Positions 1,790 to 32,618 are shown, counted from the stretch's first letter. The stretch is DNA of 64,000 nucleotides from Bacteriovoracaceae bacterium (GCA_048270185.1 JBLWTJ010000001.1:1152001-1216000), one strand, 5' to 3'. Made by a program: numbers and translations. The notes: generated by a model not told the origin, from the letters alone.

Positions 1790-2641
1790 CTAGAAAATAA
1801 GACTCTTGATAAGTTCCCTTAAATAATCAAAGTAAGGCTTACGATACTTTTCAATCTCTTTGTAGATTTCATGACGTGAGCCTTCGATAACCTTAACAGT
1901 AAAACTTGTATCAACTTCACTCAAGTAGCGCTCAATCTCTGGAACAGAAACAAGTGTATCAGCACTTCCATAGGAGATATACTTTTCAATATCATTATTA
2001 ATTGGACGAGAGAAGACTTTCTTAGCGCAAGAGACCATTTCAAGTAGTAATTTTGTATGAAGCTTCATGTGATTTAATGGATCATTCTGATACTCTTCGA
2101 TCTCGACACTACTATGAGAGAGTGTATTTACATCAACAAGCCCGCCAATTGGTACAGACATTTTAATACTAGCTAGTTTTTTAAAGATTGCACCTTTCAC
2201 TTTATTCACGACGGCCGCTAGTGGACCACCAACTCCTACTGGTGGAGCATTAACAATCATGGCACGAGGTGCGAAGTCACTCTTTACATAATTTTGAGTA
2301 AAGCCACATGTGATGAGTCCACCCATCGAGTGGCCATAGAGAATGTAATTCTCAACCTTATAATTTTCTCTTAAGTACTTGAGACAATCTTCGAGGTCCT
2401 CCATGAATTGATCAAATGGATCAATATAGGCTTTCTCTCCTCCTGATCGGCCATGCCCTCTTAGATCGTATTGAAAGACATTGATATCAAAACCAAAGAT
2501 TTCTTGCAGGTATTTATGTCGACCTAAATGCTCACCTATTCCATGAGTTCCGATGATCCAGTACTTTGCACCATGTTCGACGACTTCAGTGTATAGCTTA
2601 ACTCCGTCACGCATTGGAATGGCACGTTTAATTGACTCCAT
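1790..2641 (-). CDS. alpha/beta hydrolase, lysophospholipase/monoglyceride lipase-like
   Basis: HGIGEH, DLRGHGRS, GHSMGG, C-terminal HE. Confidence 0.9.
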   Translation of the reverse strand: MESIKRAIPMRDGVKLYTEVVEHGAKYWIIGTHGIGEHLGRHKYLQEIFGFDINVFQYDLRGHGRSGGEKAYIDPFDQFMEDLEDCLKYLRENYKVENYILYGHSMGGLITCGFTQNYVKSDFAPRAMIVNAPPVGVGGPLAAVVNKVKGAIFKKLASIKMSVPIGGLVDVNTLSHSSVEIEEYQNDPLNHMKLHTKLLLEMVSCAKKVFSRPINNDIEKYISYGSADTLVSVPEIERYLSEVDTSFTVKVIEGSRHEIYKEIEKYRKPYFDYLRELIKSLIF

Positions 2642-2703
2642 AATTTACCCTTTAAAAATATTTATTTAGCTCTTATAATTATACTTAAAATTAAGGAAAA
2701 GTA

Positions 2704-3072
2704 ATGTTTTGTCCAAAATGCTTAAATAATAGTGTACATGTAAAAGAAAAAGGCGTCATTCAGATCTTAGTGAATGGCCGTCAAAAAGATACAGGCCGTT
2801 TTCTCTATAACCTAGAGGACAAACAAAATATCACTCAACAAATCTCTGAGAAAATTCTTGAGCACTTCAAATGGATGGCCTCTTTTCAAAACCCTAAACC
2901 AGTCGAGCATCTTAATGTCATTACTCCAGATGCTGTTTGTGACAACGGCTGCGCTCTTCCTCTGGCCCAAAAATTCTCGGTTGTTGATTACTTAATTTCA
3001 ACAAAAGACCTCAAGTCCATGGCCGTTGTTCACGCTAAGGAGTGTGAGCTTGAGCTCGACTTAGAATTCTAA
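2704..3072 (+). CDS. hypothetical protein, possible Zn-binding
   Basis: N-terminal CPKC and later CDNGC; AAGGA RBS. Confidence 0.7.
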   Translation: MFCPKCLNNSVHVKEKGVIQILVNGRQKDTGRFLYNLEDKQNITQQISEKILEHFKWMASFQNPKPVEHLNVITPDAVCDNGCALPLAQKFSVVDYLISTKDLKSMAVVHAKECELELDLEF

Positions 3073-3858
3073 GTTTAAGAAGTAGCCACCATGCTTTCTC
3101 ATATTTACAACACCTGTATCTAAGATAAGATATTGTCCTTTAATTCCCATTAGAGTTCCTTCGATAATAGGATTCTTATCAAAGCCTAATGATTTAACTT
3201 TAGTAGGATATTCAATAACTGGATATTTAATTTCTGTGATCTCTTCTTCAATATCATCAAGCCCAAAGCTATCAATTATATCTGCATAGTCATCATAGAT
3301 TTGATCACGAAGCATCTCAAGATCTTCATCTGCAACTTCATTCATAAGCATCTTTCGCCAATTCGTTTTATCTGAAAAACTCTTTGCAATTTCAACTTCG
3401 ATTTCACCAGAAGTCTTACGATCGGGAACTTCTAAAATAGGAAGAGCATAACTTGCTCCTTGATCAATCCATCGAGTTGGGACTTGAGTGTGGCGTGTAA
3501 TCCCAATTTTTACGTGACTTGATACGGCCAGATAAACAAAGTGAGGAATCATACAATTCTCTTCACCCCACTCTGGTTCACGACATGTCCCTTTATGAAA
3601 ATGACAAAGCTCAGGCTTCACTATACAAGTATCACATTGAGCAAGTGTAATCATTTCCTTATACGAATAACCCTGAGAATAAGATTTCTTAATTAACTCA
3701 CCTGAATAGACTGAGTTAATCTGACCATCAAATGAAAGCTTTATCTTCTTTTCAATTAACTCATTCATATCGACAAGAGTTTCTCCCATCGGAAGTTGGT
3801 AATGGGCAAGCCCATCAACAAGAGAAGTCTTCATCTTTTTAATATTTCCACTAATCAT
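3061..3858 (-). CDS. DUF2797 family protein
   Basis: CDTCIVKPELCHFHKGTCREPEWGEENCMIPHFVYLA, KIGITR, RWIDQGA, DKTNWRKML, GIKGQYL. Confidence 0.85.
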   Translation of the reverse strand: MISGNIKKMKTSLVDGLAHYQLPMGETLVDMNELIEKKIKLSFDGQINSVYSGELIKKSYSQGYSYKEMITLAQCDTCIVKPELCHFHKGTCREPEWGEENCMIPHFVYLAVSSHVKIGITRHTQVPTRWIDQGASYALPILEVPDRKTSGEIEVEIAKSFSDKTNWRKMLMNEVADEDLEMLRDQIYDDYADIIDSFGLDDIEEEITEIKYPVIEYPTKVKSLGFDKNPIIEGTLMGIKGQYLILDTGVVNMRKHGGYFLNLEF

Positions 3859-3861
3859 TTT

Positions 3862-4539
3862 CTACTTCTCCAGAAATTTTTGTAATTTTTGAATAATAGG
3901 CATTGGAATCTCATGCCCTCCTTGAAATGAATGAAATTCATACTCATCAACTTTCTCAAGATATGTTTTTAACTTCTCACATAGGAAGAATGGAAGAACA
4001 GGATCTCCTACGCCATGGGATTGAAAAATTGGAATATGGCGAATACTTTTAAAGTGATTTGCAATATAGTCTTCATCAAAGAGCGTTGATGAAAGTAAGA
4101 ATAATCTCTCGACTAGTTCCGGCTCTTCAAGGGCCATTGATAAACTCATCATCGAACCTTGGGAAAAACCTCCCAAGTAAATATTAGATGAATTCTTTTT
4201 TATTTCCTTAACTAAATGGATAAGACGAGTTGTCATATCTTCAATTCCATCTGGTTTAGAGTGAGTGAAGAAATCTTCAATACGACCTTCTAGTTGTGCC
4301 TGTTGTAATCCCATCATATCAATTGGAAACCATGCACTTCCTCTCATCCCCATACCAATATCAACTTTTAAAGGGCCATCCACGAAGTACCAATTATACT
4401 CGTCTTTAGGATCAAGATATTGATACAGAGGAGCTAAGTCTTGAAAACTTGCGCCATATCCATGAAGAACAACGACTGACTTATCAGTGCTTCCCTCTTG
4501 GAAAAGAATATCAAAATCATTTATTCGCGTAACTCTCAT
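3862..4539 (-). CDS. phospholipase/carboxylesterase (Abhydrolase_2)
   Basis: LHGYG, AWFPID, GGFSQG, HGVGDPVLP, GGHEI. Confidence 0.9.
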   Translation of the reverse strand: MRVTRINDFDILFQEGSTDKSVVVLHGYGASFQDLAPLYQYLDPKDEYNWYFVDGPLKVDIGMGMRGSAWFPIDMMGLQQAQLEGRIEDFFTHSKPDGIEDMTTRLIHLVKEIKKNSSNIYLGGFSQGSMMSLSMALEEPELVERLFLLSSTLFDEDYIANHFKSIRHIPIFQSHGVGDPVLPFFLCEKLKTYLEKVDEYEFHSFQGGHEIPMPIIQKLQKFLEK

Positions 4540-24318: not shown

Positions 24319-24394
<76 letters not shown>

Positions 24395-24729: not shown

Positions 24730-25230
24730 ATGAAAAAAATTATCGCACTTGCTGCCGCACTACTAAGCGTTTCATCTTTTGCACTTGATGCATCTGATTC
24801 ATGGTCAACAATCAAAGCTGAAGTAGCTGCTGATTACGATCTATCTTTTACTGGAACAACTGTATTTGTTGGACGTCCAGTTAGCGCATTTGACGTTTGT
24901 CTTGATGGTGATCAATTCGTTACAACTAGAGAATTCCCAATTTACGAAATCGTATTTGTTGGTAGAAATCACTCAGAAGCTGACGAAGATGGTTATGCTT
25001 CAGTAATCGTTGGATACGAAATCCTTTCTTTCCCAACTACTTATACTTCATACAAAGAAGTATGTAAGAACGATGACAAAAACTGTAAGAGAGTTGCTTA
25101 CACTGTTAACCAAGATCTTGTTAAGAACGTTTCTGTAAAAGAAGTTGTTAGAAGAAATGTTGGTAAGAACGATCGTACAATCGAGAGAACACTATTTAAG
25201 AAATCTTTCGAAATCCCAGCTTGTAACTAA
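24730..25230 (+). CDS. secreted 4-Cys beta-rich protein, cassette 1 subunit A1 (unknown family)
   Basis: GGAGG RBS; signal MKKIIALAAALLSVSSFA; WSTI, FDVC, C-x6-C, IPACN; paralogue of 26116, 26929 and 28403 genes. Confidence 0.9.
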   Translation: MKKIIALAAALLSVSSFALDASDSWSTIKAEVAADYDLSFTGTTVFVGRPVSAFDVCLDGDQFVTTREFPIYEIVFVGRNHSEADEDGYASVIVGYEILSFPTTYTSYKEVCKNDDKNCKRVAYTVNQDLVKNVSVKEVVRRNVGKNDRTIERTLFKKSFEIPACN

Positions 25231-25238
25231 TAAATACA

Positions 25239-25274
25239 ATAGCTTAAGCGTTATCCCTAAGGCGCTTAAGCTAT
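25239..25274 (+). other. conserved stem-loop after A1 (TATCCCTAAG loop)
   Basis: ATAGCTTAAGCG-TTATCCCTAAGG-CGCTTAAGCTAT; homologous hairpin at 27444-27473. Confidence 0.7.
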
Positions 25275-25286
25275 ATATTTTATAGC

Positions 25287-26114
25287 ATGACTAGATTCAC
25301 GAACCTATTCATGCTATTTCAACAGCTTATGATAAAAGAAAACTCACCAAATACGGCCCTACAAAAAATGGGACTTATCGAGCAAGTCAGCTATGACCTG
25401 GATAAGAAGTTGCGCGAGTTTAAGAATGTAAAAATTGGAGTTAGGCTAATTTCGGAAAAGTCAGGAGTTAGTGAGAGAACGATCTATCGCCTACTGGCCA
25501 AAGAAAACAAACCAACTTATCAAACTCTTTATAAACTCTATCGAATTATTTTCAATACAAGCAATGAATCACTACTTCTAACCCTTGTCCCAGATGTTAT
25601 TCGTGAAGAGATTAAAAAGTGTAATCCAAATGTCATCTCCCAACAAATTCAATACCACGAAGAAGTTGAAGCACAGATGGCCTATGATCGCACTTTTGCA
25701 GAAATTTACATTATGGCAGCATGTGCACCGATAACAACAGAGCTTATTCAGTACCGCTACGGTATGAGTGGAATGTTAACTGTTGAGAAGATGCTGGAAA
25801 TGAAGACCCTTGCCCAGACAAAATCTGGTACTTATATCCTTGGTGAAAACCAAGCTAATTTTAGTGCTAAAACACTAAAGCGATTAGGTCTTTCTCTAAC
25901 AGAGAAATACTGTAAACCACAGAACGCAGAAAGCTTTGGTGAGAATATCATCTCATTCTTTGCTGATGGATTAAGTGAAGAAGCCTATGACAAATGGCTT
26001 GAAATTGATGCAAGAGCATTTCAAGAAAAAGTTGCTATTGCTAACTTAGAAAAATCAAAAGGAACAAAGAGAGCTTTTACTTTTAATGTAACAGACTCTT
26101 TAAGTGAGAAATAA
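25287..26114 (+). CDS. HTH transcriptional regulator, TIGR02147/DUF4423-like (B1)
   Basis: XRE-type HTH VRLISEKSGVSERTIYRL..ENKPTYQTL; C-terminal GLSEEAYDKWLEID..AFTF; paralogue of 27588-28385; true start may be slightly downstream. Confidence 0.75.
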   Translation: MTRFTNLFMLFQQLMIKENSPNTALQKMGLIEQVSYDLDKKLREFKNVKIGVRLISEKSGVSERTIYRLLAKENKPTYQTLYKLYRIIFNTSNESLLLTLVPDVIREEIKKCNPNVISQQIQYHEEVEAQMAYDRTFAEIYIMAACAPITTELIQYRYGMSGMLTVEKMLEMKTLAQTKSGTYILGENQANFSAKTLKRLGLSLTEKYCKPQNAESFGENIISFFADGLSEEAYDKWLEIDARAFQEKVAIANLEKSKGTKRAFTFNVTDSLSEK

Positions 26115-26115
26115 G

Positions 26116-26670
26116 ATGAAATTATTACTACTACTTCTATTATCAATATCAATCTTTGCAACAGGAGGAGTTGGTGGTACTTCAGGTGGCCCAAAACCGA
26201 AGAAAGATGATTTTGAAAAAATTGGACCAAAGACACCTTGGAGTGAAATCCAAGATATCGCAAAGATTAATAAAGAAGTTAAAATCGCTCATACAGCGAT
26301 CTTCGTTAGTCGTCCACTAAATGTCTTTGATGTATGTGTTGATGGTGACGAGTTTAGATCTGTAGCAAAAGTTCCAAAATACAAGAGAATGCTTGTTGGT
26401 AAAACTCATTTCGGAACTGATGAAGATGGCTACAAAGACGTTAAAATTGGAAATGAGTTTCTACGCTTCCCTATTAACTACACTAAGTATGAAACAAAGT
26501 GTGAGAATGACAATAGAAGATGCCGTCGCGTTAAAGTTGAAGTTAACCGTGAAACGATTAAAGAACTAGAGATTAAAAAAGTTAAGACTTATAAGCCAAA
26601 TAGTGACAATCCTAGAGAAGTCGTTCTCGATAAGAAGAGAAAGGATTACGTTATCCCATACTGTAATTAA
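26116..26670 (+). CDS. secreted 4-Cys paralogue with Gly-rich leader (C1)
   Basis: ATG 1 nt after B1 stop; signal MKLLLLLLLSISIFA then TGGVGGTSGG; WSEI, FDVC, C-x6-C, IPYCN. Confidence 0.88.
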   Translation: MKLLLLLLLSISIFATGGVGGTSGGPKPKKDDFEKIGPKTPWSEIQDIAKINKEVKIAHTAIFVSRPLNVFDVCVDGDEFRSVAKVPKYKRMLVGKTHFGTDEDGYKDVKIGNEFLRFPINYTKYETKCENDNRRCRRVKVEVNRETIKELEIKKVKTYKPNSDNPREVVLDKKRKDYVIPYCN

Positions 26671-26696
26671 GAATTAGATTTCATATAAAATACTTT

Positions 26697-26723
26697 AGGC
26701 CACTCGAAAGAGTGGCCTTTTTT
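26697..26723 (+). terminator. intrinsic terminator closing cassette 1
   Basis: AGGCCACTC-GAAA-GAGTGGCCT followed by T-run. Confidence 0.9.
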
Positions 26724-26753
26724 GACTTAAACTCCATGAAATTTACTGTATTT

Positions 26754-26800
26754 TGTCCATTTGTCATATTTGACCGATCAAACTTGGACAATGTCTGGCA
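26754..26800 (+). promoter_or_regulatory. operator-like array upstream of cassette 2
   Basis: Cluster of TGTC/GACA half-sites including GACAATGTC; TGTCTG starts 137 nt before the ATG, as in cassette 1. Confidence 0.45.
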
Positions 26801-26928
26801 AAAAACAAGTTCATCTCCACAAAAATTGTCACATTATTTTCGAGGCCATAATTTCTCCCCATAGCAAAAACTGAATAACAAATTTGTTTTAAAAACAAAT
26901 CATATCAACAAACAATTCGGAGGAATTT

Positions 26929-27423
26929 ATGAAAAAAATTATCGCTCTTGCAGCTGCAATCCTAAGTGTATCAACTTTCGCAATCGACGCTTCTGACTCA
27001 TGGTCAACAATCAGAGAAGAAGTTAAGGCTAGCCACAACCTAGTAATGTCTTCTGGATACACAGTATTTATGGGTACTACAAGAACTACTGCTTTCAACG
27101 TATGTGTAAACGGTGAAAACTTCAATACAACTACTGAATTCCCAATCTACGAATACGTAAGAGTTGGTGGTGGTAAAGATGGTGACAACTTCAAAAAAGT
27201 TATCGTTGGTTACGAAATCCTTTCTTTCCCAATCGTACGTGAAGTTACTAAGACAATTTGTTACGGTAAGAACGACAACAGATGTAAAACTGTAACTGAA
27301 ATCGAAGAGCAATCAACTGTAAAAGATATCACAATCTCTAAAATCGTAAGACGTGGTGGAGACCGTGATGACAAGCTAGTTAAGCTTTTCACAAAATCAT
27401 ACGTAATCCCAGCTTGTAACTAA
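26929..27423 (+). CDS. secreted 4-Cys beta-rich protein, cassette 2 subunit A2
   Basis: Same RBS context CGGAGGAATTTATGAAAAAAATTATCGC as A1; DASDSWSTI, FNVC, C-x7-C, IPACN. Confidence 0.9.
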   Translation: MKKIIALAAAILSVSTFAIDASDSWSTIREEVKASHNLVMSSGYTVFMGTTRTTAFNVCVNGENFNTTTEFPIYEYVRVGGGKDGDNFKKVIVGYEILSFPIVREVTKTICYGKNDNRCKTVTEIEEQSTVKDITISKIVRRGGDRDDKLVKLFTKSYVIPACN

Positions 27424-27443
27424 GATACTCGCTCGGATCACTT

Positions 27444-27473
27444 GTAAGCGTCTTATCCCTAAGAGGCGCTTAC
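27444..27473 (+). other. conserved stem-loop after A2 (TATCCCTAAG loop)
   Basis: GTAAGCGTCTTATCCCTAAGAGGCGCTTAC; homologous to 25239-25274. Confidence 0.7.
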
Positions 27474-27490
27474 TTTACCGATATAACAAT

Positions 27491-27525
27491 GGCCAAGGAT
27501 TCCCTACCTTGGCCTTTGTAATTTT
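27491..27525 (+). terminator. terminator-like hairpin between A2 and B2
   Basis: GGCCAAGG-ATTCCCTA-CCTTGGCC followed by TTTGTAATTTTT. Confidence 0.6.
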
Positions 27526-27587
27526 TACTACTTACATGAATTAACCCCTTAAAAATGATAATATTGGCCAAATTGAGATGAGGCATA

Positions 27588-28385
27588 ATGAGAGAAGAGA
27601 TTTCTAATACAATCAGTGACTTAGATACTGCCAGGCCAGTTGGTCTTAAGGCACAGGTTGCTAATGATATTAGAGAGCATCTGGCTCAATTTCGAAATGA
27701 ATCAATTGGATTAAGAAAGCTCGCTGAAAAATCAGGAATCCATCAAAGAACTCTTAAGCGTCTAATCGCTCAAGAAAACCGTCCTGGTTATCAAACGTTA
27801 GTTCGTCTCTATACCTGCCTAGTCGAATCATCAAATGGTGGTTTACTTCTAAAGAATCTTCCTGAAAAAGTCGCAAACGAAATACAAAAGAAATCTCCAA
27901 TATCAACTGAAGGTAGTCTTAAGTATAGTGAAGAGGCCAATTCAGAAATGTTCTACGACAAGGTCTTTTCAGAAATCTATTGCCTAGCTTCAATGTCTCC
28001 TATTACAAGTGAATATATTCAATACCGTTATGGGATGAGTGGAGTTGAAACAGCAGATAAGATGCATGATCTTGGAGTCTTAAAACTTACAAAGAATAAA
28101 TCATATACGACGGGTGATATTCAAATTGAATTCTCTCCAAAGCTTGTCAAAAGACTAGGACTTAACCTCGTGGAGAAATATTCAAAAACTGAAGATGTCG
28201 ATTTAGCAGAAAAGAACTTAATTGCTTTCTATGCTGAAGGACTAAGCCCAGAAGGTTACAGAGAATGGCTTAAGATTGACCAACAGGCATTCTACAAAAA
28301 GATCGAAGTAACAAAAAAAGAAGGCATGTTAGGAAATATTAAAACATTTACTTTCATGGCCACAGACACAATGAAAAAAGACTAA
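27588..28385 (+). CDS. HTH transcriptional regulator, TIGR02147/DUF4423-like (B2)
   Basis: LRKLAEKSGIHQRTLKRL..ENRPGYQTL HTH; shares IQYRYGMSG, KRLGL and GLS.E.Y..WL.ID with B1. Confidence 0.75.
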   Translation: MREEISNTISDLDTARPVGLKAQVANDIREHLAQFRNESIGLRKLAEKSGIHQRTLKRLIAQENRPGYQTLVRLYTCLVESSNGGLLLKNLPEKVANEIQKKSPISTEGSLKYSEEANSEMFYDKVFSEIYCLASMSPITSEYIQYRYGMSGVETADKMHDLGVLKLTKNKSYTTGDIQIEFSPKLVKRLGLNLVEKYSKTEDVDLAEKNLIAFYAEGLSPEGYREWLKIDQQAFYKKIEVTKKEGMLGNIKTFTFMATDTMKKD

Positions 28386-28402
28386 GAGAAAAAGGATATA
28401 AA

Positions 28403-29002
28403 ATGAAATTATTAATTAAAATTCTTATTCTTTCTCTTTCATTAAATGTCTTTGCAGGAACAGGTGGGATTAGCTCGCTATTTGGTTTCGGAGATAAAGA
28501 TGGAAAAGGAAAGAATGGAAGAGTAGATGCTGGTACAGGCGGTATCGTTGGCGGTGTCGATGAGCTAAAAGATCTTCAGCATAAAGACTGGAGTACAATT
28601 AGAGAAGCCGTTAAACAAGACTACAAGCTTGACCTTCAGGGGGATATTGCTTTTGTTGGGAAAATTGTCTCAGTTTTTGATGTTTGTATCAATAATGATA
28701 AAGTTCAAACAATCTCAAAACATCCAGTATATAAGCGAGTACGCTTAGCTGGAAACAGAGATAATGATCGTTATAAAGATGTTGTGATCGGACATAAGAG
28801 ATTGTCTTTCCCACTAACGAGAGAAGTAAAAAAACAAATTTGTTTTGGAAAGAGAGATAATAATTGTCGCGAGTACACTGAAGTTGAAAACTTTTCGCAG
28901 ACAAAGAAAATCACTCTACGTGTCGAGAAAAAGCATAGTAGAGAAAATATCGAATATAAGGATGTTTTCACAAAGCCTTATGACGTACCTTACTGCCAAT
29001 AA
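28403..29002 (+). CDS. secreted 4-Cys paralogue with Gly-rich leader (C2)
   Basis: Signal ending VFA, AGTGGI twice, WSTI, FDVC, C-x7-C, VPYCQ. Confidence 0.88.
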   Translation: MKLLIKILILSLSLNVFAGTGGISSLFGFGDKDGKGKNGRVDAGTGGIVGGVDELKDLQHKDWSTIREAVKQDYKLDLQGDIAFVGKIVSVFDVCINNDKVQTISKHPVYKRVRLAGNRDNDRYKDVVIGHKRLSFPLTREVKKQICFGKRDNNCREYTEVENFSQTKKITLRVEKKHSRENIEYKDVFTKPYDVPYCQ

Positions 29003-29021
29003 TCAAAAATAAGTGAAAGAC

Positions 29022-32000
29022 CTAGGCTTCTACGCCTAGGTCTCTTTCATTACTCTTTATTTCTAATTTAATTGAATTACTTGAAATTTTGAAACGAACA
29101 CCATGTTCGAAGCGCCCCTTAACATTATCTCTTAAAAGATCCTTTGTTAGCTCTTCTTCACATCTTAGAGTTCCACTTGCAGTGATACCTATTGAACGAT
29201 TTGGATTTGTATAGATTTTAACAAAATCAATTTTAGAAAGGACAAACGGCAATGATTCGATATAAGACTTGATTCCATCAAAATGGCGGCCTTTAACAAT
29301 CGTCTCTATTGTTGAGTCATCAAGGAATAAACTGGCATCAAATTCAATTTTCGAAAGAGCTACCTCGAGAGTATCTTTCATACTTCTTAAACTTTGTTTC
29401 GCTTCGCGATTTAGTTGTAGTTCCTTTTCCTTTTTCTTTCCTTTAAGGCTTCTTGACTGCTCTCTTAATAGCTCTAGAGATTCAATAATAGTCTTTGACT
29501 TCACTGTCTCTTGGTGAATATTAAGATTTAAACTTTCACACTCTGAGCGCAAGTCACGAATTTCTAAAGAAATTCCTTCTAATAGCTTACGACTATTACG
29601 ATTGGTATCATGGGCATCCTCAAGACTAGCAATAAGCTCATCTTTCTTCAGAAGAAGCTCTCCCTTTACTTTCACCGCTTCATCAATACTTTCTTTTAAA
29701 GTTATTCTCTCTTGAGTTGATTTATCTAATTTTTCTTCGAGATCATCAACTAGAGCTGATGCCTTATTTACTTCATTACGACGGGCCTTATATTCTTTTT
29801 CAACAATGGCCTTTTCATCAAGTTCAATCTTTAAAAGTTCTAGTTTCTCACTATGTAGTTGGTTTACTTGTGCCAGCTCAGAGTTACTTCTTTCAATTTC
29901 TTTACCTAGATGAATAATTTCACCTTTAGCATTTCTCGTATCTTGTTCAAGCTTTTTAATTTCTTCACTCAATTGAACTTTTCTAACGAGATTGGACTCG
30001 AGATTATCTTCTATTTCATTAATCTCAGCCTCAAGATTCGCCATTGAAGATCTAAGTTTATAACAGCTATTTTCTATTTTTGTTAACTCTTCATTACTAA
30101 CAATATTCTTATTCTGAAGCTCCTTACTCTTAATTAGTAACTCGGCTTTCTTATTTGTAAGCTCTGTATGCTTTTGATTCTGAGTTTCGATTGTAAAGAC
30201 GATATTTTCAATACTCTTTTCTGAATCGTTTATAAGACTATTAAGTACTTCTAATTCTGTTTGTATAAGTTTGTGTTGATCTTCATTTTCAGAAACTTTT
30301 AAATTCAGGGCTACAATACGATCATCAAGATTCTTCTTAGATAGAAGTCTAGCATCATATTTCTTATTCTTATTTGATACTTCTGAACGAATCCCCTCTA
30401 ATTGGTCTTCAAGGTTTGAAGCAATTTTAGCTTTCTTAGAAATAAGCTTATCAAGTCTCTTATTATTATTTTCAAGAGATGCCAGTTCAACTTCTTTCTT
30501 TGTAATACCATCTTTTAAAGTTACGATAATATTTTCAGATTCTTCAATTACTTCTAAGTTCTTAGCATGAAGTTGTGTATTTTTATTGATCTCATTATTT
30601 AACTGATCAATTTTACTCTCATACATTGAAATCTTATCTTCAATCGTTTCTAGCTTTGCGATAGTCGAATTAAGCTTGTCGCATAATTTATCGGCAATTG
30701 AAGAAAGACGATTATTTTCAGTCGCCAACTCCTCAACGGCAATTGCTTTTGCTTCAATTCGATTATTACCTATCTCAATTCGCCCCTTCAGGCTTCCAAG
30801 AGTTAAAAGTAATTCATTATTTGTATTATTTAATTTTTGTTCATCTTCTGATAATAGGCCTTGAAGAACATCTTGAGCTTCAACCTCTTCCAGTAATGCT
30901 TCTTTTGCTCTTGTCGATTTCTCCACCTTTAAGTTTAATAGATCGATACTCTTTCTAAGTCCTGAAATCGTAGTTTCAAGAGATAGCTTTTGAGTAGTAA
31001 GACGATTCTTTTCAAGCTCTAGGTTAATGATAGACTCACGAGCTTCAACCTCACTACCCTTTAACTCATTTAAAAGATGACGATGGTCGATCATTTCATT
31101 TGTAGCATTCTTAATCTGTTCTTCAAGACTTAGAATTTTCTTTTTGCGATTTGCATTATTAAATAGAGCTTTTGATTCTTTTGCCTTCAGCTCTTTAAGA
31201 CTCAAGTTAACTCTTTCAAATTCTTTATTTAACTCAGCAACACGATTATCTAATCTTATGCTTTCCGAAAGAACAGCTTCATATTCTTTCTTTGACTTCT
31301 TATAGTCACGATCAACTTGATCAATCTCGATAAGAGAAGATCCTTCTCTCGTTCTTAGTTCATCAAGCTTCTGCTTAGTTTCAACAATTGCCTTCTGAGT
31401 TTCAACAATCTTATCTTGGTATTTTTTGGTTTCATTAGCTAGAATCTTTAGATCTTCTACTAACTCTACTCTTTTCTTCTCTTTCTTCGTTAAATCTCTT
31501 TCTAAATCTTTTAAAGTTTCAAGTTCAACCTTCTCTGTTGTTTTAGTTGAACTCATCTCTGTCTCTATTGATTTAATTTCCGAATTTAGACGAGTAATTG
31601 ATTGTTGAATCTTTTCTTGGTTCGAATTGATCTCTCTAATATTTTCAATTCTAATAACGATTTCTTTTTCAGCTTCAAGCTTTTGCTCCATCAGGTTTGC
31701 TTGCTCAAGCCTTCCCTCTTCAAGCTTTGTTAATGCCTGCTCTCTATTGACCTTGAGTTTTTCACTCTTATCAAGTAAGTGTGAAACTTCCTTATTTAGC
31801 TTGATTCTTTCACCATCGAGAATTTCAATCGATTTATCACACTTGAGAATTTCTTCATTATCAAGTTTAATTTGTGCTTCAAATTTCTTAATTCTCTTCT
31901 TCGTTTCTTCTATTTGAGATTTAAGTCCACTATGAACATCTGTATTGCTAACACGATTACCACTTAGAACGTCAGTTTTACTCTTAAGAGTACTCTCTTG

Positions 32001-32447
32001 TCCTTTTAGGCTTGCGAGTTCTAATTGAATCTTATTTATTTCATCAAGTTTAGATGAATGATTTTCAGATAGTGATTCTACTTTTTCTTTTAGCGAGTTA
32101 ATTTGTGAAATGACTATTTTCTTTTGCTCAGTTAATTCGACAAGACTCTCTTCTTGGGCCTTGTTAAGTGATTTGATTTTTTGAATTCTTTGTTCAAGGA
32201 TTTCCTTATCCGCAACTTCATCAGTTAACGCTGATTGAATTCTCTTTAACTCATTTTCACTTTTAGACAGTTTAATTTTTTGTAATTCAATACTTCTCTT
32301 AAGCTCACCATTACTTTTAACAAGACCATTAAGATCTCTTGTCGATTGCTCTAGGGCCTTATCGTTTGCTTCTTGTAATTTAAGTATTTCTTCCTGAGAG
32401 ACAGGTTCATTAATAGTCTTTTTACTTCGTAATTTAAATAGATTCAT
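29022..32447 (-). CDS. very long coiled-coil protein (~1140 aa) with small C-terminal globular domain
   Basis: Continuous heptad-like E/K/L/I composition, no Walker motifs or TM; ATG 32447 after GAGG RBS (ORF open from 32477). Confidence 0.85.
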   Translation of the reverse strand: MNLFKLRSKKTINEPVSQEEILKLQEANDKALEQSTRDLNGLVKSNGELKRSIELQKIKLSKSENELKRIQSALTDEVADKEILEQRIQKIKSLNKAQEESLVELTEQKKIVISQINSLKEKVESLSENHSSKLDEINKIQLELASLKGQESTLKSKTDVLSGNRVSNTDVHSGLKSQIEETKKRIKKFEAQIKLDNEEILKCDKSIEILDGERIKLNKEVSHLLDKSEKLKVNREQALTKLEEGRLEQANLMEQKLEAEKEIVIRIENIREINSNQEKIQQSITRLNSEIKSIETEMSSTKTTEKVELETLKDLERDLTKKEKKRVELVEDLKILANETKKYQDKIVETQKAIVETKQKLDELRTREGSSLIEIDQVDRDYKKSKKEYEAVLSESIRLDNRVAELNKEFERVNLSLKELKAKESKALFNNANRKKKILSLEEQIKNATNEMIDHRHLLNELKGSEVEARESIINLELEKNRLTTQKLSLETTISGLRKSIDLLNLKVEKSTRAKEALLEEVEAQDVLQGLLSEDEQKLNNTNNELLLTLGSLKGRIEIGNNRIEAKAIAVEELATENNRLSSIADKLCDKLNSTIAKLETIEDKISMYESKIDQLNNEINKNTQLHAKNLEVIEESENIIVTLKDGITKKEVELASLENNNKRLDKLISKKAKIASNLEDQLEGIRSEVSNKNKKYDARLLSKKNLDDRIVALNLKVSENEDQHKLIQTELEVLNSLINDSEKSIENIVFTIETQNQKHTELTNKKAELLIKSKELQNKNIVSNEELTKIENSCYKLRSSMANLEAEINEIEDNLESNLVRKVQLSEEIKKLEQDTRNAKGEIIHLGKEIERSNSELAQVNQLHSEKLELLKIELDEKAIVEKEYKARRNEVNKASALVDDLEEKLDKSTQERITLKESIDEAVKVKGELLLKKDELIASLEDAHDTNRNSRKLLEGISLEIRDLRSECESLNLNIHQETVKSKTIIESLELLREQSRSLKGKKKEKELQLNREAKQSLRSMKDTLEVALSKIEFDASLFLDDSTIETIVKGRHFDGIKSYIESLPFVLSKIDFVKIYTNPNRSIGITASGTLRCEEELTKDLLRDNVKGRFEHGVRFKISSNSIKLEIKSNERDLGVEA

Positions 32448-32618
32448 ATGGTTCCTCGCTACACTATATTTTCTCACTAAAGCCCTTTAAAATAAGCAGG
32501 TGGCAAGATTTGCATTGGCGCAGCGCTAAGTTATTTTAGGCCATGTGATATCAATGGATTTGGACGATTAACCGAGCAAACTACTTTGCTTTAAACTCTT
32601 GTCTTCGCTTTCTTAAGC

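Follow-up and report, generated by a model that had tools for sequence, protein, structure and literature searches.

In the 64,000-nucleotide (nt) stretch of DNA analyzed here, from a marine predator recorded as Bacteriovoracaceae bacterium (GCA_048270185.1 JBLWTJ010000001.1:1152001-1216000; hereafter the window), two tandem cassettes of three genes each, designated A, B and C, lie on the + strand at positions 24730-29002, and all six open reading frames (ORFs) have been confirmed. A and C encode paralogous proteins predicted to be exported, and B a putative DNA-binding protein. The main finding is that, over the core of the mature domain, A2 groups with C2, its partner inside the cassette, and not with A1, its counterpart in the other cassette. 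A first-pass annotation of this sequence had noted that A and C covary within each cassette, and that a plain duplication of an A-B-C unit predicts likeness of A1 with A2 and of C1 with C2 throughout. Such a duplication is contradicted, trees that sort the proteins by role being rejected in the core, and the within-cassette covariation has been found again in other lineages. The genes and the two hairpin-tip regions on which the argument turns are as follows.

24730..25230, +: A1, predicted exported protein with four cysteines (Cys), 166 amino acids (aa), plain Sec-type signal peptide MKKIIALAAALLSVSSFA as read from the sequence
24955..25020, +: A1 tip 1, residues 76-97, predicted hairpin loop with DEDGY, matching C1 in length and sequence
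25045..25110, +: A1 tip 2, residues 106-127, C-x6-C loop
25287..26114, +: B1, 275 aa, without signal peptide, putative N-terminal XRE/Cro-like helix-turn-helix (HTH)
26104..26670, +: C1, predicted exported four-Cys paralogue, Gly-rich leader after the signal peptide
26392..26457, +: C1 tip 1
26482..26547, +: C1 tip 2 (C-x6-C)
26929..27423, +: A2, 164 aa, A-type signal peptide, cassette-2 core
27160..27216, +: A2 tip 1, three residues shorter than in A1, GDNF
27241..27309, +: A2 tip 2 (REV..., C-x7-C)
27588..28385, +: B2, 265 aa, 44% identity with B1, on its own long branch of the B tree
28403..29002, +: C2, 199 aa, long Gly-rich leader, cassette-2 core
28742..28798, +: C2 tip 1, of the same length as in A2, NDRY
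28823..28891, +: C2 tip 2 (REV..., C-x7-C)

Likeness of A and C within and between cassettes

A1, C1, A2 and C2 are the only four copies of the family in this genome and share 28 invariant alignment columns, including W25 and the four Cys. Identity to A1 amounts to 55% for A2, 37% for C1 and 34% for C2, the A1-A2 pair being the most similar one over the full length; B1 and B2 align with an expectation (E) value of 3e-77. The motifs that the first-pass annotation had ascribed to each cassette were all recovered, namely RPV/RPL..FDVC.DGD.F, DEDGY and C-x6-C (CKNDDKNC, CENDNRRC) in cassette 1 and WSTIRE.VK, LSFP..REV.K.IC and C-x7-C (CYGKNDNRC, CFGKRDNNC) in cassette 2, with FDVC present in C2 too. 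So were the role-specific ends, i.e., the A-type signal peptide and IPACN on one side and the C-type Gly-rich leader and PYC on the other. Regarding the broader statement that the termini sort by role, it stands for the signal peptide or leader and for the last few residues (the residue before the final Cys is A or Y according to role in 6/6 two-cassette genomes) and not for the mature ends, which on their own (43 columns) place A2 together with C2 with a support of 90/93.

Fully informative quartet columns in the window number 9 for role, 4 for cassette and 0 for the cross arrangement, and three length differences track the cassette. Summed over the six two-cassette genomes, which are not independent of each other, these columns become 49, 51 and 5, respectively. 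In all six genomes, the identity of cognate A-C pairs over the mature domain (0.37-0.51) exceeds that of non-cognate pairs (0.27-0.36), and each C is nearer to the A of its cassette than to the C of the other one (C1-C2 identity, 0.26-0.35). Because both cassettes share one genome, this cognate excess is not explained by composition.

Homologues have been found in 11 of 41 related genomes (E ≤ 0.001) and in 20 of 238 genomes of the order (E ≤ 1e-5). Both cassettes occupy the same place in six genomes of the genus, the window's own included, and a single A-B-C cassette is carried by G005, G006, G015, G128, G042, G043 and G100 and likewise by G129. For these comparisons, the A ORFs of relatives were trimmed to the conserved MKK start. 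Four of the two-cassette genomes possess an extra A-type copy, A0, between folE2 and A1:

L034 2203-2697: A0
L036 6466-7005 (-): A0
L037 1861-2397: A0
L038 6595-7242 (-): A0

A first set of trees, built on the whole mature domain from nine genomes (34 rows), recovered a clade of A0, A2 and C2 with a support of 99/99. Groupings by role were 19-24 log-likelihood (lnL) units worse, with p-values of the approximately unbiased (AU) test of 0.09 for all A together, 0.05 for A0+A1+A2 and 0.04 for C1+C2. Separate trees for core and ends had been proposed as a check by the first-pass annotation: the core, defined as A1 residues 67-157, did not place A1 with A2 and C1 with C2, and returned A0+A2+C2 at 100/100, with all A (p 0.0097), A0+A1+A2 (p 0.0017) and C1+C2 (p 0.0068) all rejected by AU tests. 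The N-terminal mature part grouped all A proteins at 86/86 and rejected no arrangement.

The same clade was obtained with eight lineages (34 rows, G008 and G011 being left out as near-duplicates), at 100/99 for the whole mature domain and 100/100 for the core. Since A and C are also sisters in G042 (100/99) and G129 (87/94), two unrelated single cassettes, the pattern is recurrent. A tree constrained to separate A from C by role proved 93.1 lnL units worse (p-AU 0.0056; LG+G4; 33 rows, G004_A0, identical to A2, being dropped as well), and site likelihoods favoured the role tree only at A1 residues 22-31, 62-71 and 140-166.

The two cassettes differ in polarity. DxDG(Y/W), YT.Y and C-x6-C, taken as features of cassette 1, occur in single-cassette A and C alike, so that the A1-C1 likeness is mostly a retained ancestral state. 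In cassette 2, A2 and C2 share derived features, i.e., a shorter tip 1, REV and C-x7-C. The shared motifs of the first-pass annotation are hence shared and derived for cassette 2 and mostly ancestral for cassette 1. Exclusive shared states amount to 6 for A2-C2 and to 0-1 for all other pairings. A1-C1 was also considered as a derived pair and ruled out, as the two share 0 exclusive states, are not sisters and carry motifs present in single-cassette A and C. Cassette 2 itself is an old or fast-evolving lineage and not a recent copy of cassette 1, because B2 sits on a long and separate branch (length 1.48) and B1 clusters (99/99) with B proteins of single cassettes, namely those of G005, G006 and G129.

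Match between A and C was further assessed by permutation, using one A-C pair per lineage in the eight lineages with row and column means removed; no cognate excess is expected if A and C split once before the lineages diverged. The cognate arrangement scored highest, its score being reached by 1 of 40320 permutations for the mature domain, 4/40320 for the core and 31/40320 for the N-terminal part. When any one lineage was dropped, 1 in 5040 permutations reached it, and with only the five lineages whose A and C are not sisters, 1 in 120. Over tip 1, the excess is positive in 8/8 lineages (+0.06 to +0.49); over tip 2, which comprises the Cys loop and the next strand, it is strong in cassette 2, G015 and G129; and in G042 it extends across most of the domain.

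Lengths tell a similar story. Between Y72 and G95, cassette 1 has a spacing of 22, cassette 2 one of 19, G005/G006, G043, G100 and G129 one of 23, G015/G128 one of 24 and G042 one of 17. This spacing is equal in A and C in all eight lineages, G004_A2 being the sole deviant (20 versus 19). The Cys loop has 6 residues in most lineages, 7 in both proteins of cassette 2, 8 in both of G129, and 7 versus 6 in G042. For the C-terminal spacing, no A-C match was found among lineages.

Could all this be a plain duplication blurred by chance, ancestral motifs, alignment error or long-branch effects? The ancestral nature of the cassette-1 motifs, the borderline rejection of role trees over the whole mature domain of nine genomes and the N-terminal tree that rejects nothing would fit such an account. 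We nonetheless find it hardly credible: cassette columns far outnumber cross columns (51 versus 5), invariant W, Y, G and Cys residues fix the position of the indels, long-branch attraction would pair the fast C1 and C2 and not the slow A2 with C2, and both the cognate excess inside the same genome, seen in 6/6, and the permutation results disfavour it.

Possible origins of the match

The explanation that we prefer, and to which we would give an even chance of being correct, is an old and episodic exchange between A and C followed by selection for matched tips. Each cassette would specify two exported paralogues, A and C, the latter with a Gly-rich leader, together with a cytoplasmic HTH protein, B; A and C would be built on one common beta-rich domain with four invariant Cys. 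Two hairpin-tip regions, tip 1 around DEDGY/GDRY and tip 2 corresponding to the Cys-closed loop, would set the 'type' of a cassette, matched between A and C inside it and different between cassettes. The mature part, or pieces of it, would occasionally have been copied between A and C across B by non-reciprocal exchange, i.e., gene conversion, with the signal peptide or leader and the extreme C-terminus remaining role-specific. Selection would then keep the tips alike, both proteins having to fit the same partner, be it each other or a common ligand. The exchange in cassette 2 would predate the split of the six sampled species, and cassette 1 would largely retain the ancestral type. We favour this history because matched indels and identical changes are easier to obtain by copying than by independent mutation.

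Among the A copies of relatives, conversion is at work in this region. Separated by 3 kb, A0 and the A2 of which it is a copy have a DNA identity of 99.8% in G004, 95.4% in G008, 94.9% in G009 and 86.7% in G011, and trees with a separate A0 clade are rejected (p-AU 3e-56). In G008 and G009, A1 and A0/A2 moreover have 5' tracts of 107-114 nt that are 94-98% identical. In the window itself, 28 bases surrounding the ribosome-binding site and start are the same in A1 and A2, after which the signal-peptide codons of the two differ at many synonymous sites. As a separate observation, three of the four A0 copies cluster with the A2 of the genome that carries them, by ongoing concerted evolution or by repeated duplication. 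Our literature search found no paper on gene conversion in Halobacteriovorax, and two papers retrieved as matches for secreted paralogues of this genus (PMC12724312 and PMC11323537) do not, in the portions available to us, concern the A/C family.

Between A and C themselves, several observations weigh against copying. Codon-by-codon comparison revealed no recent A-C conversion tract, the N-terminal part of G042 alone giving a weak hint of a younger one (19/28 identical codons, 81% nt identity). Where residues are identical, their codons also agree at a frequency of 0.42-0.62 within cassettes, against a background of 0.48-0.50. In tip 1 of G005, 14 identical residues are encoded with just one identical codon; the tips of A2 and C2 differ at most synonymous sites; and A2 and C2 of G009 have in common a Ser whose codon is AGT in one of them and TCT in the other, which fits parallel change better than copying. 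It follows from this synonymous divergence that the shared peptides have long been held by selection. When both tips were removed (58 columns), the cassette-2 clade was no longer recovered, though not rejected either (p 0.37), so that the signal is concentrated where selection would act. In addition, A and C are not sisters in five of the eight lineages (cassette 1, G005/G006, G015/G128, G043 and G100), columns that follow role are intermingled with columns that follow the cassette, leaving no clear break points, and the limits of core and tips were set after the site patterns had been seen. Finally, at two loci of one distant lineage (L065 1074-1475 and L066 954-1487), an exported Cys-rich protein encoded 5' of B has no detectable similarity to C (BLASTP E ≥ 0.13), and the upstream slot can hence hold an unrelated protein. 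A clean mosaic with two break points was considered as well and is ruled out by the interleaved columns and by the grouping of A2 with C2 on mature ends alone.

Much of this would be expected if no DNA had passed between A and C and if a change in the tip of one protein simply favoured the same change in its partner, A and C forming a pseudo-symmetric pair or binding one ligand. Such co-evolution by selection alone, which we consider rather unlikely, would account for synonymous sites being saturated even at identical peptides, for a within-cassette codon identity equal to background and for a cognate excess that sits in the same two loop regions in most lineages. It has more difficulty with indels of the same size at the same place (four length changes in tip 1 and two of three in the Cys loop), which are hard to reach by independent mutation, and with changes that are identical and not complementary. 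Moreover, the G042 proteins are alike across most of the mature domain and remain sisters even without the loops (99/95), and conversion among A copies is demonstrably active in relatives. In the absence of a nucleotide trace, A-C conversion is indistinguishable from selection-driven co-evolution; of the alternatives offered by the first-pass annotation, co-evolution or within-cassette conversion, the covariation common to both is thus borne out and the conversion has left no mark in the DNA of A and C. As an aside on G005 (L039; A 3714-4214 (-), C 2239-2799 (-)), the stretch of low codon identity in tip 1 surrounds NDGDRDGYT, and its divergence, below the background of about 0.48, may reflect chance or avoidance of nucleotide identity between direct repeats.

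One may also suppose a birth-and-death process in which A2 and C2, and likewise A and C of G042, G129 and the distant locus L057, are true sister duplicates that later gained their role-specific ends by exchange between genes of the same role (A1 to A2, C1 to C2). A2 and C2 do group over the whole mature domain and even on its ends, B2 is a deep and separate lineage, and the A 5' ends are homogenized within genomes in tracts of about 110 nt, the two copies reading DASDSWSTI in the window (A1 and A2) and SANDSWDTI in relatives. However, the synonymous differences between the signal-peptide codons of A1 and A2 in the window point to likeness maintained by selection and not to recent copying, and the leaders of C1 and C2 differ greatly in length. 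This capture of ends, which we judge quite improbable, needs as much recombination as the A-C exchange that we prefer and predicts nearly the same trees. Exchange, selection alone and end capture are poorly separated by the present data.

Structure, relatives and genomic setting

The A proteins have a plain Sec-type signal peptide and the C proteins a signal peptide followed by a Gly-rich stretch, as far as can be read from their sequences, and the four invariant Cys would suit exported, disulfide-bonded proteins. The model of A1 (predicted local distance difference test (pLDDT) 87.3, predicted template modelling score (pTM) 0.69) is beta-rich, with 12 strands and one helix. Tip 1 forms the loop between strands 69-76 and 89-97 in this model, and the Cys loop the turn between strands 104-113 and 117-127; from the strand order, both tips would lie at the same end of the sheet. 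Foldseek gave no PDB match to the A1 model at E ≤ 0.001 (best 0.41), VIA-align gave 0 among 48161 chains at Z ≥ 5 (best Z 3.6, 40 residues aligned) and the ESM Atlas search yielded no usable match, which does not show that the fold is new. A complex prediction for A1 (20-166) and C1 (20-188), run without controls and with a 20-row alignment per chain, scored 0.00 against a mark of 0.32, which speaks neither for nor against an interaction of the two.

None of A1, C1, A2 and C2 has a family at or near cut-off in Pfam-A, NCBIfam or PADLOC. A profile search of 1.84 billion representatives returned 76 proteins at E ≤ 0.001, mostly of 134-201 aa (listed range, 81-1421 aa), and among the 32 of them that were scanned, none has a Pfam match at cut-off for the A/C-like domain. 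Any function found for the family would be new, because no curated family in the libraries searched covers it and the names available, for 13 of the 31 listed clusters, are all hypothetical or uncharacterized proteins of Halobacteriovorax, Bacteriovorax or Bacteriovoracaceae. Weak and distant relatives of the domain were also observed elsewhere in related genomes (G001:C3:142149-142610, G002:C1:5855-6265, G005:C13:33760-34125 and G021:C2:330185-330628; E 1e-6 to 7e-4), and the representative search added about 50 further proteins, mostly of 134-191 aa (E 1e-10 to 1e-3), so that the superfamily extends beyond the cassettes.

B resembles DNA-binding proteins of the XRE type. B1 and B2 score 17.8 and 20.6 bits with HTH_3, below the Pfam gathering cut-off of 23, with the match at residues 42-84. 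The B1 model has a pLDDT of 69.8 with blocks above 90 at residues 31-70, and its N-terminal part retrieves the DNA-binding domains of SinR (SinR-N, TMt 0.71), lambda cI, 434 Cro and C.Esp1396I as local Foldseek matches (probability 0.96-1.0, E 0.04-0.3); a PDB sequence search with B1 gave 0 matches at E ≤ 1. Such weak HTH_3 scores and local N-terminal matches liken B to the XRE/Cro-cI regulators, from which it differs by sub-cut-off scores and by a C-terminal part of about 190 residues outside any assigned family.

Upstream, the neighbours of the cassettes are a folE2-type GTP cyclohydrolase gene (Pfam GCHY-1, E 1e-64) and a tRNA gene. Further features of the locus are the following.

24319..24394, +: tRNA-Val (ARAGORN), context, upstream of cassette 1
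25239..25274, +: 14-pair hairpin between A1 and B1, terminator- or attenuator-like by sequence
26697..26718, +: terminator-like hairpin with T run, 3' of C1
27491..27514, +: 8-pair hairpin between A2 and B2
29018..29043,.: two-way terminator-like hairpin between C2 and a convergent ORF of 1151 aa

Within each cassette, the B and C genes abut or overlap. For C1, the ATG at 26116 (MKLLLL...) is a more likely start than 26104. Because hairpins follow A1, C1, A2 and C2, this layout suggests a separate stop or attenuation signal behind A and a possible common unit of B and C. The 14-pair hairpin at 25239-25274 has no clear T run and could be an attenuator or a protein-binding palindrome. The convergent ORF (29022-32477, -) appears coiled-coil-like by eye and has no Pfam match; each of the five relatives with two cassettes has a long convergent ORF, cut by the end of the fetched region, in this position beside C2.

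Beyond the family, homologues of B with 33-40% identity occur in other Bdellovibrionota assemblies and in metagenome contigs, where they are followed by a predicted exported protein with a Gly-rich leader. A motif of the G-x-G-G-x-x-G-G type directly follows the signal peptide of the post-B protein in the window (26161-26190 and 28457-28555), in L057 (2271-2666) and downstream of the B match in L055, L056, L058 and L062-L067. It is kept even where B is only 33-40% identical and the mature domain differs, and it might serve for tethering, processing or sorting. One of these loci carries a full cassette:

L057 1007-1303: A
L057 1429-2301: B
L057 2271-2666: C

Over 71 aa, the mature parts of the two exported proteins of L057 are 73% identical (E 6e-39; 81% at the DNA level over 161 nt), on a short four-Cys mature domain of about 75 aa, and their leaders and tails differ markedly. 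In L052, L056, L062, L064 and L067, the sequence upstream of B contains no A-type ORF within the size range searched. Given these loci and the unrelated upstream proteins of L065 and L066, A-C matching is common and not universal. As an isolated observation, the ORF directly 5' of the distant B homologue in L064 (755-1564) starts with what we take to be a type IV pilin-type N-terminus (GFTIIE).

Biological meaning and comparison with known systems

What such cassettes do can be proposed only tentatively. A-B-C cassettes might constitute an undescribed two-protein recognition module of predatory Bdellovibrionota, in which one beta-domain would exist free, as A, and tethered by a Gly linker, as C, the two proteins would display in common one pair of exposed tips that defines a specificity type, A-C exchange and selection would keep types matched within each cassette, and the HTH protein B would control each cassette. 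Tandem cassettes would then give a cell two types, for instance for different prey-envelope ligands or partners. It is doubtful that this picture, taken with all its parts together, will hold. If the tips are specificity determinants, the locus offers a natural experiment that could show what the exported proteins of a bacterial predator recognize, with two types in one genome and at least five among relatives. If selection alone explains the match, it would be an unusually clean instance of identical, non-complementary parallel change, indels included.

The closest parallel is the concerted evolution of paralogues by gene conversion, as in tufA/tufB of enterobacteria and the pilE/pilS and opa genes of Neisseria. 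As in these systems, unit mates of A and C are closer to each other than to their counterparts elsewhere, with a mosaic likeness and distinct ends, and for A0/A2 and the A 5' ends in relatives the parallel extends to direct nucleotide evidence. In contrast, no nucleotide tract is visible for the A-C pair, exchange would take place between genes of different roles across a regulator, and the tips are stable over species splits. The process is thus of a known kind, namely partial concerted evolution of neighbouring paralogues; in the present case it concerns genes of different roles flanking a putative regulator, in an undescribed exported family of bacterial predators and with stable matched 'types'. 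It would be a clear case of different-role genes alike over part of their length and distinct at their ends.

Another comparison is provided by the EsxA/EsxB-like WXG100 proteins of mycobacteria, duplicated pairs of small secreted partners that co-evolve as cognates. Like these pairs, A and C are small, related, exported neighbours in a duplicated locus, each resembling its locus mate. They differ from them by a putative, possibly cassette-specific pairing and by a modelled A1 structure that is beta-rich with one helix, and not a helical hairpin with a WXG motif, as well as by Sec-type signal peptides, four Cys and a regulator gene between the partners.

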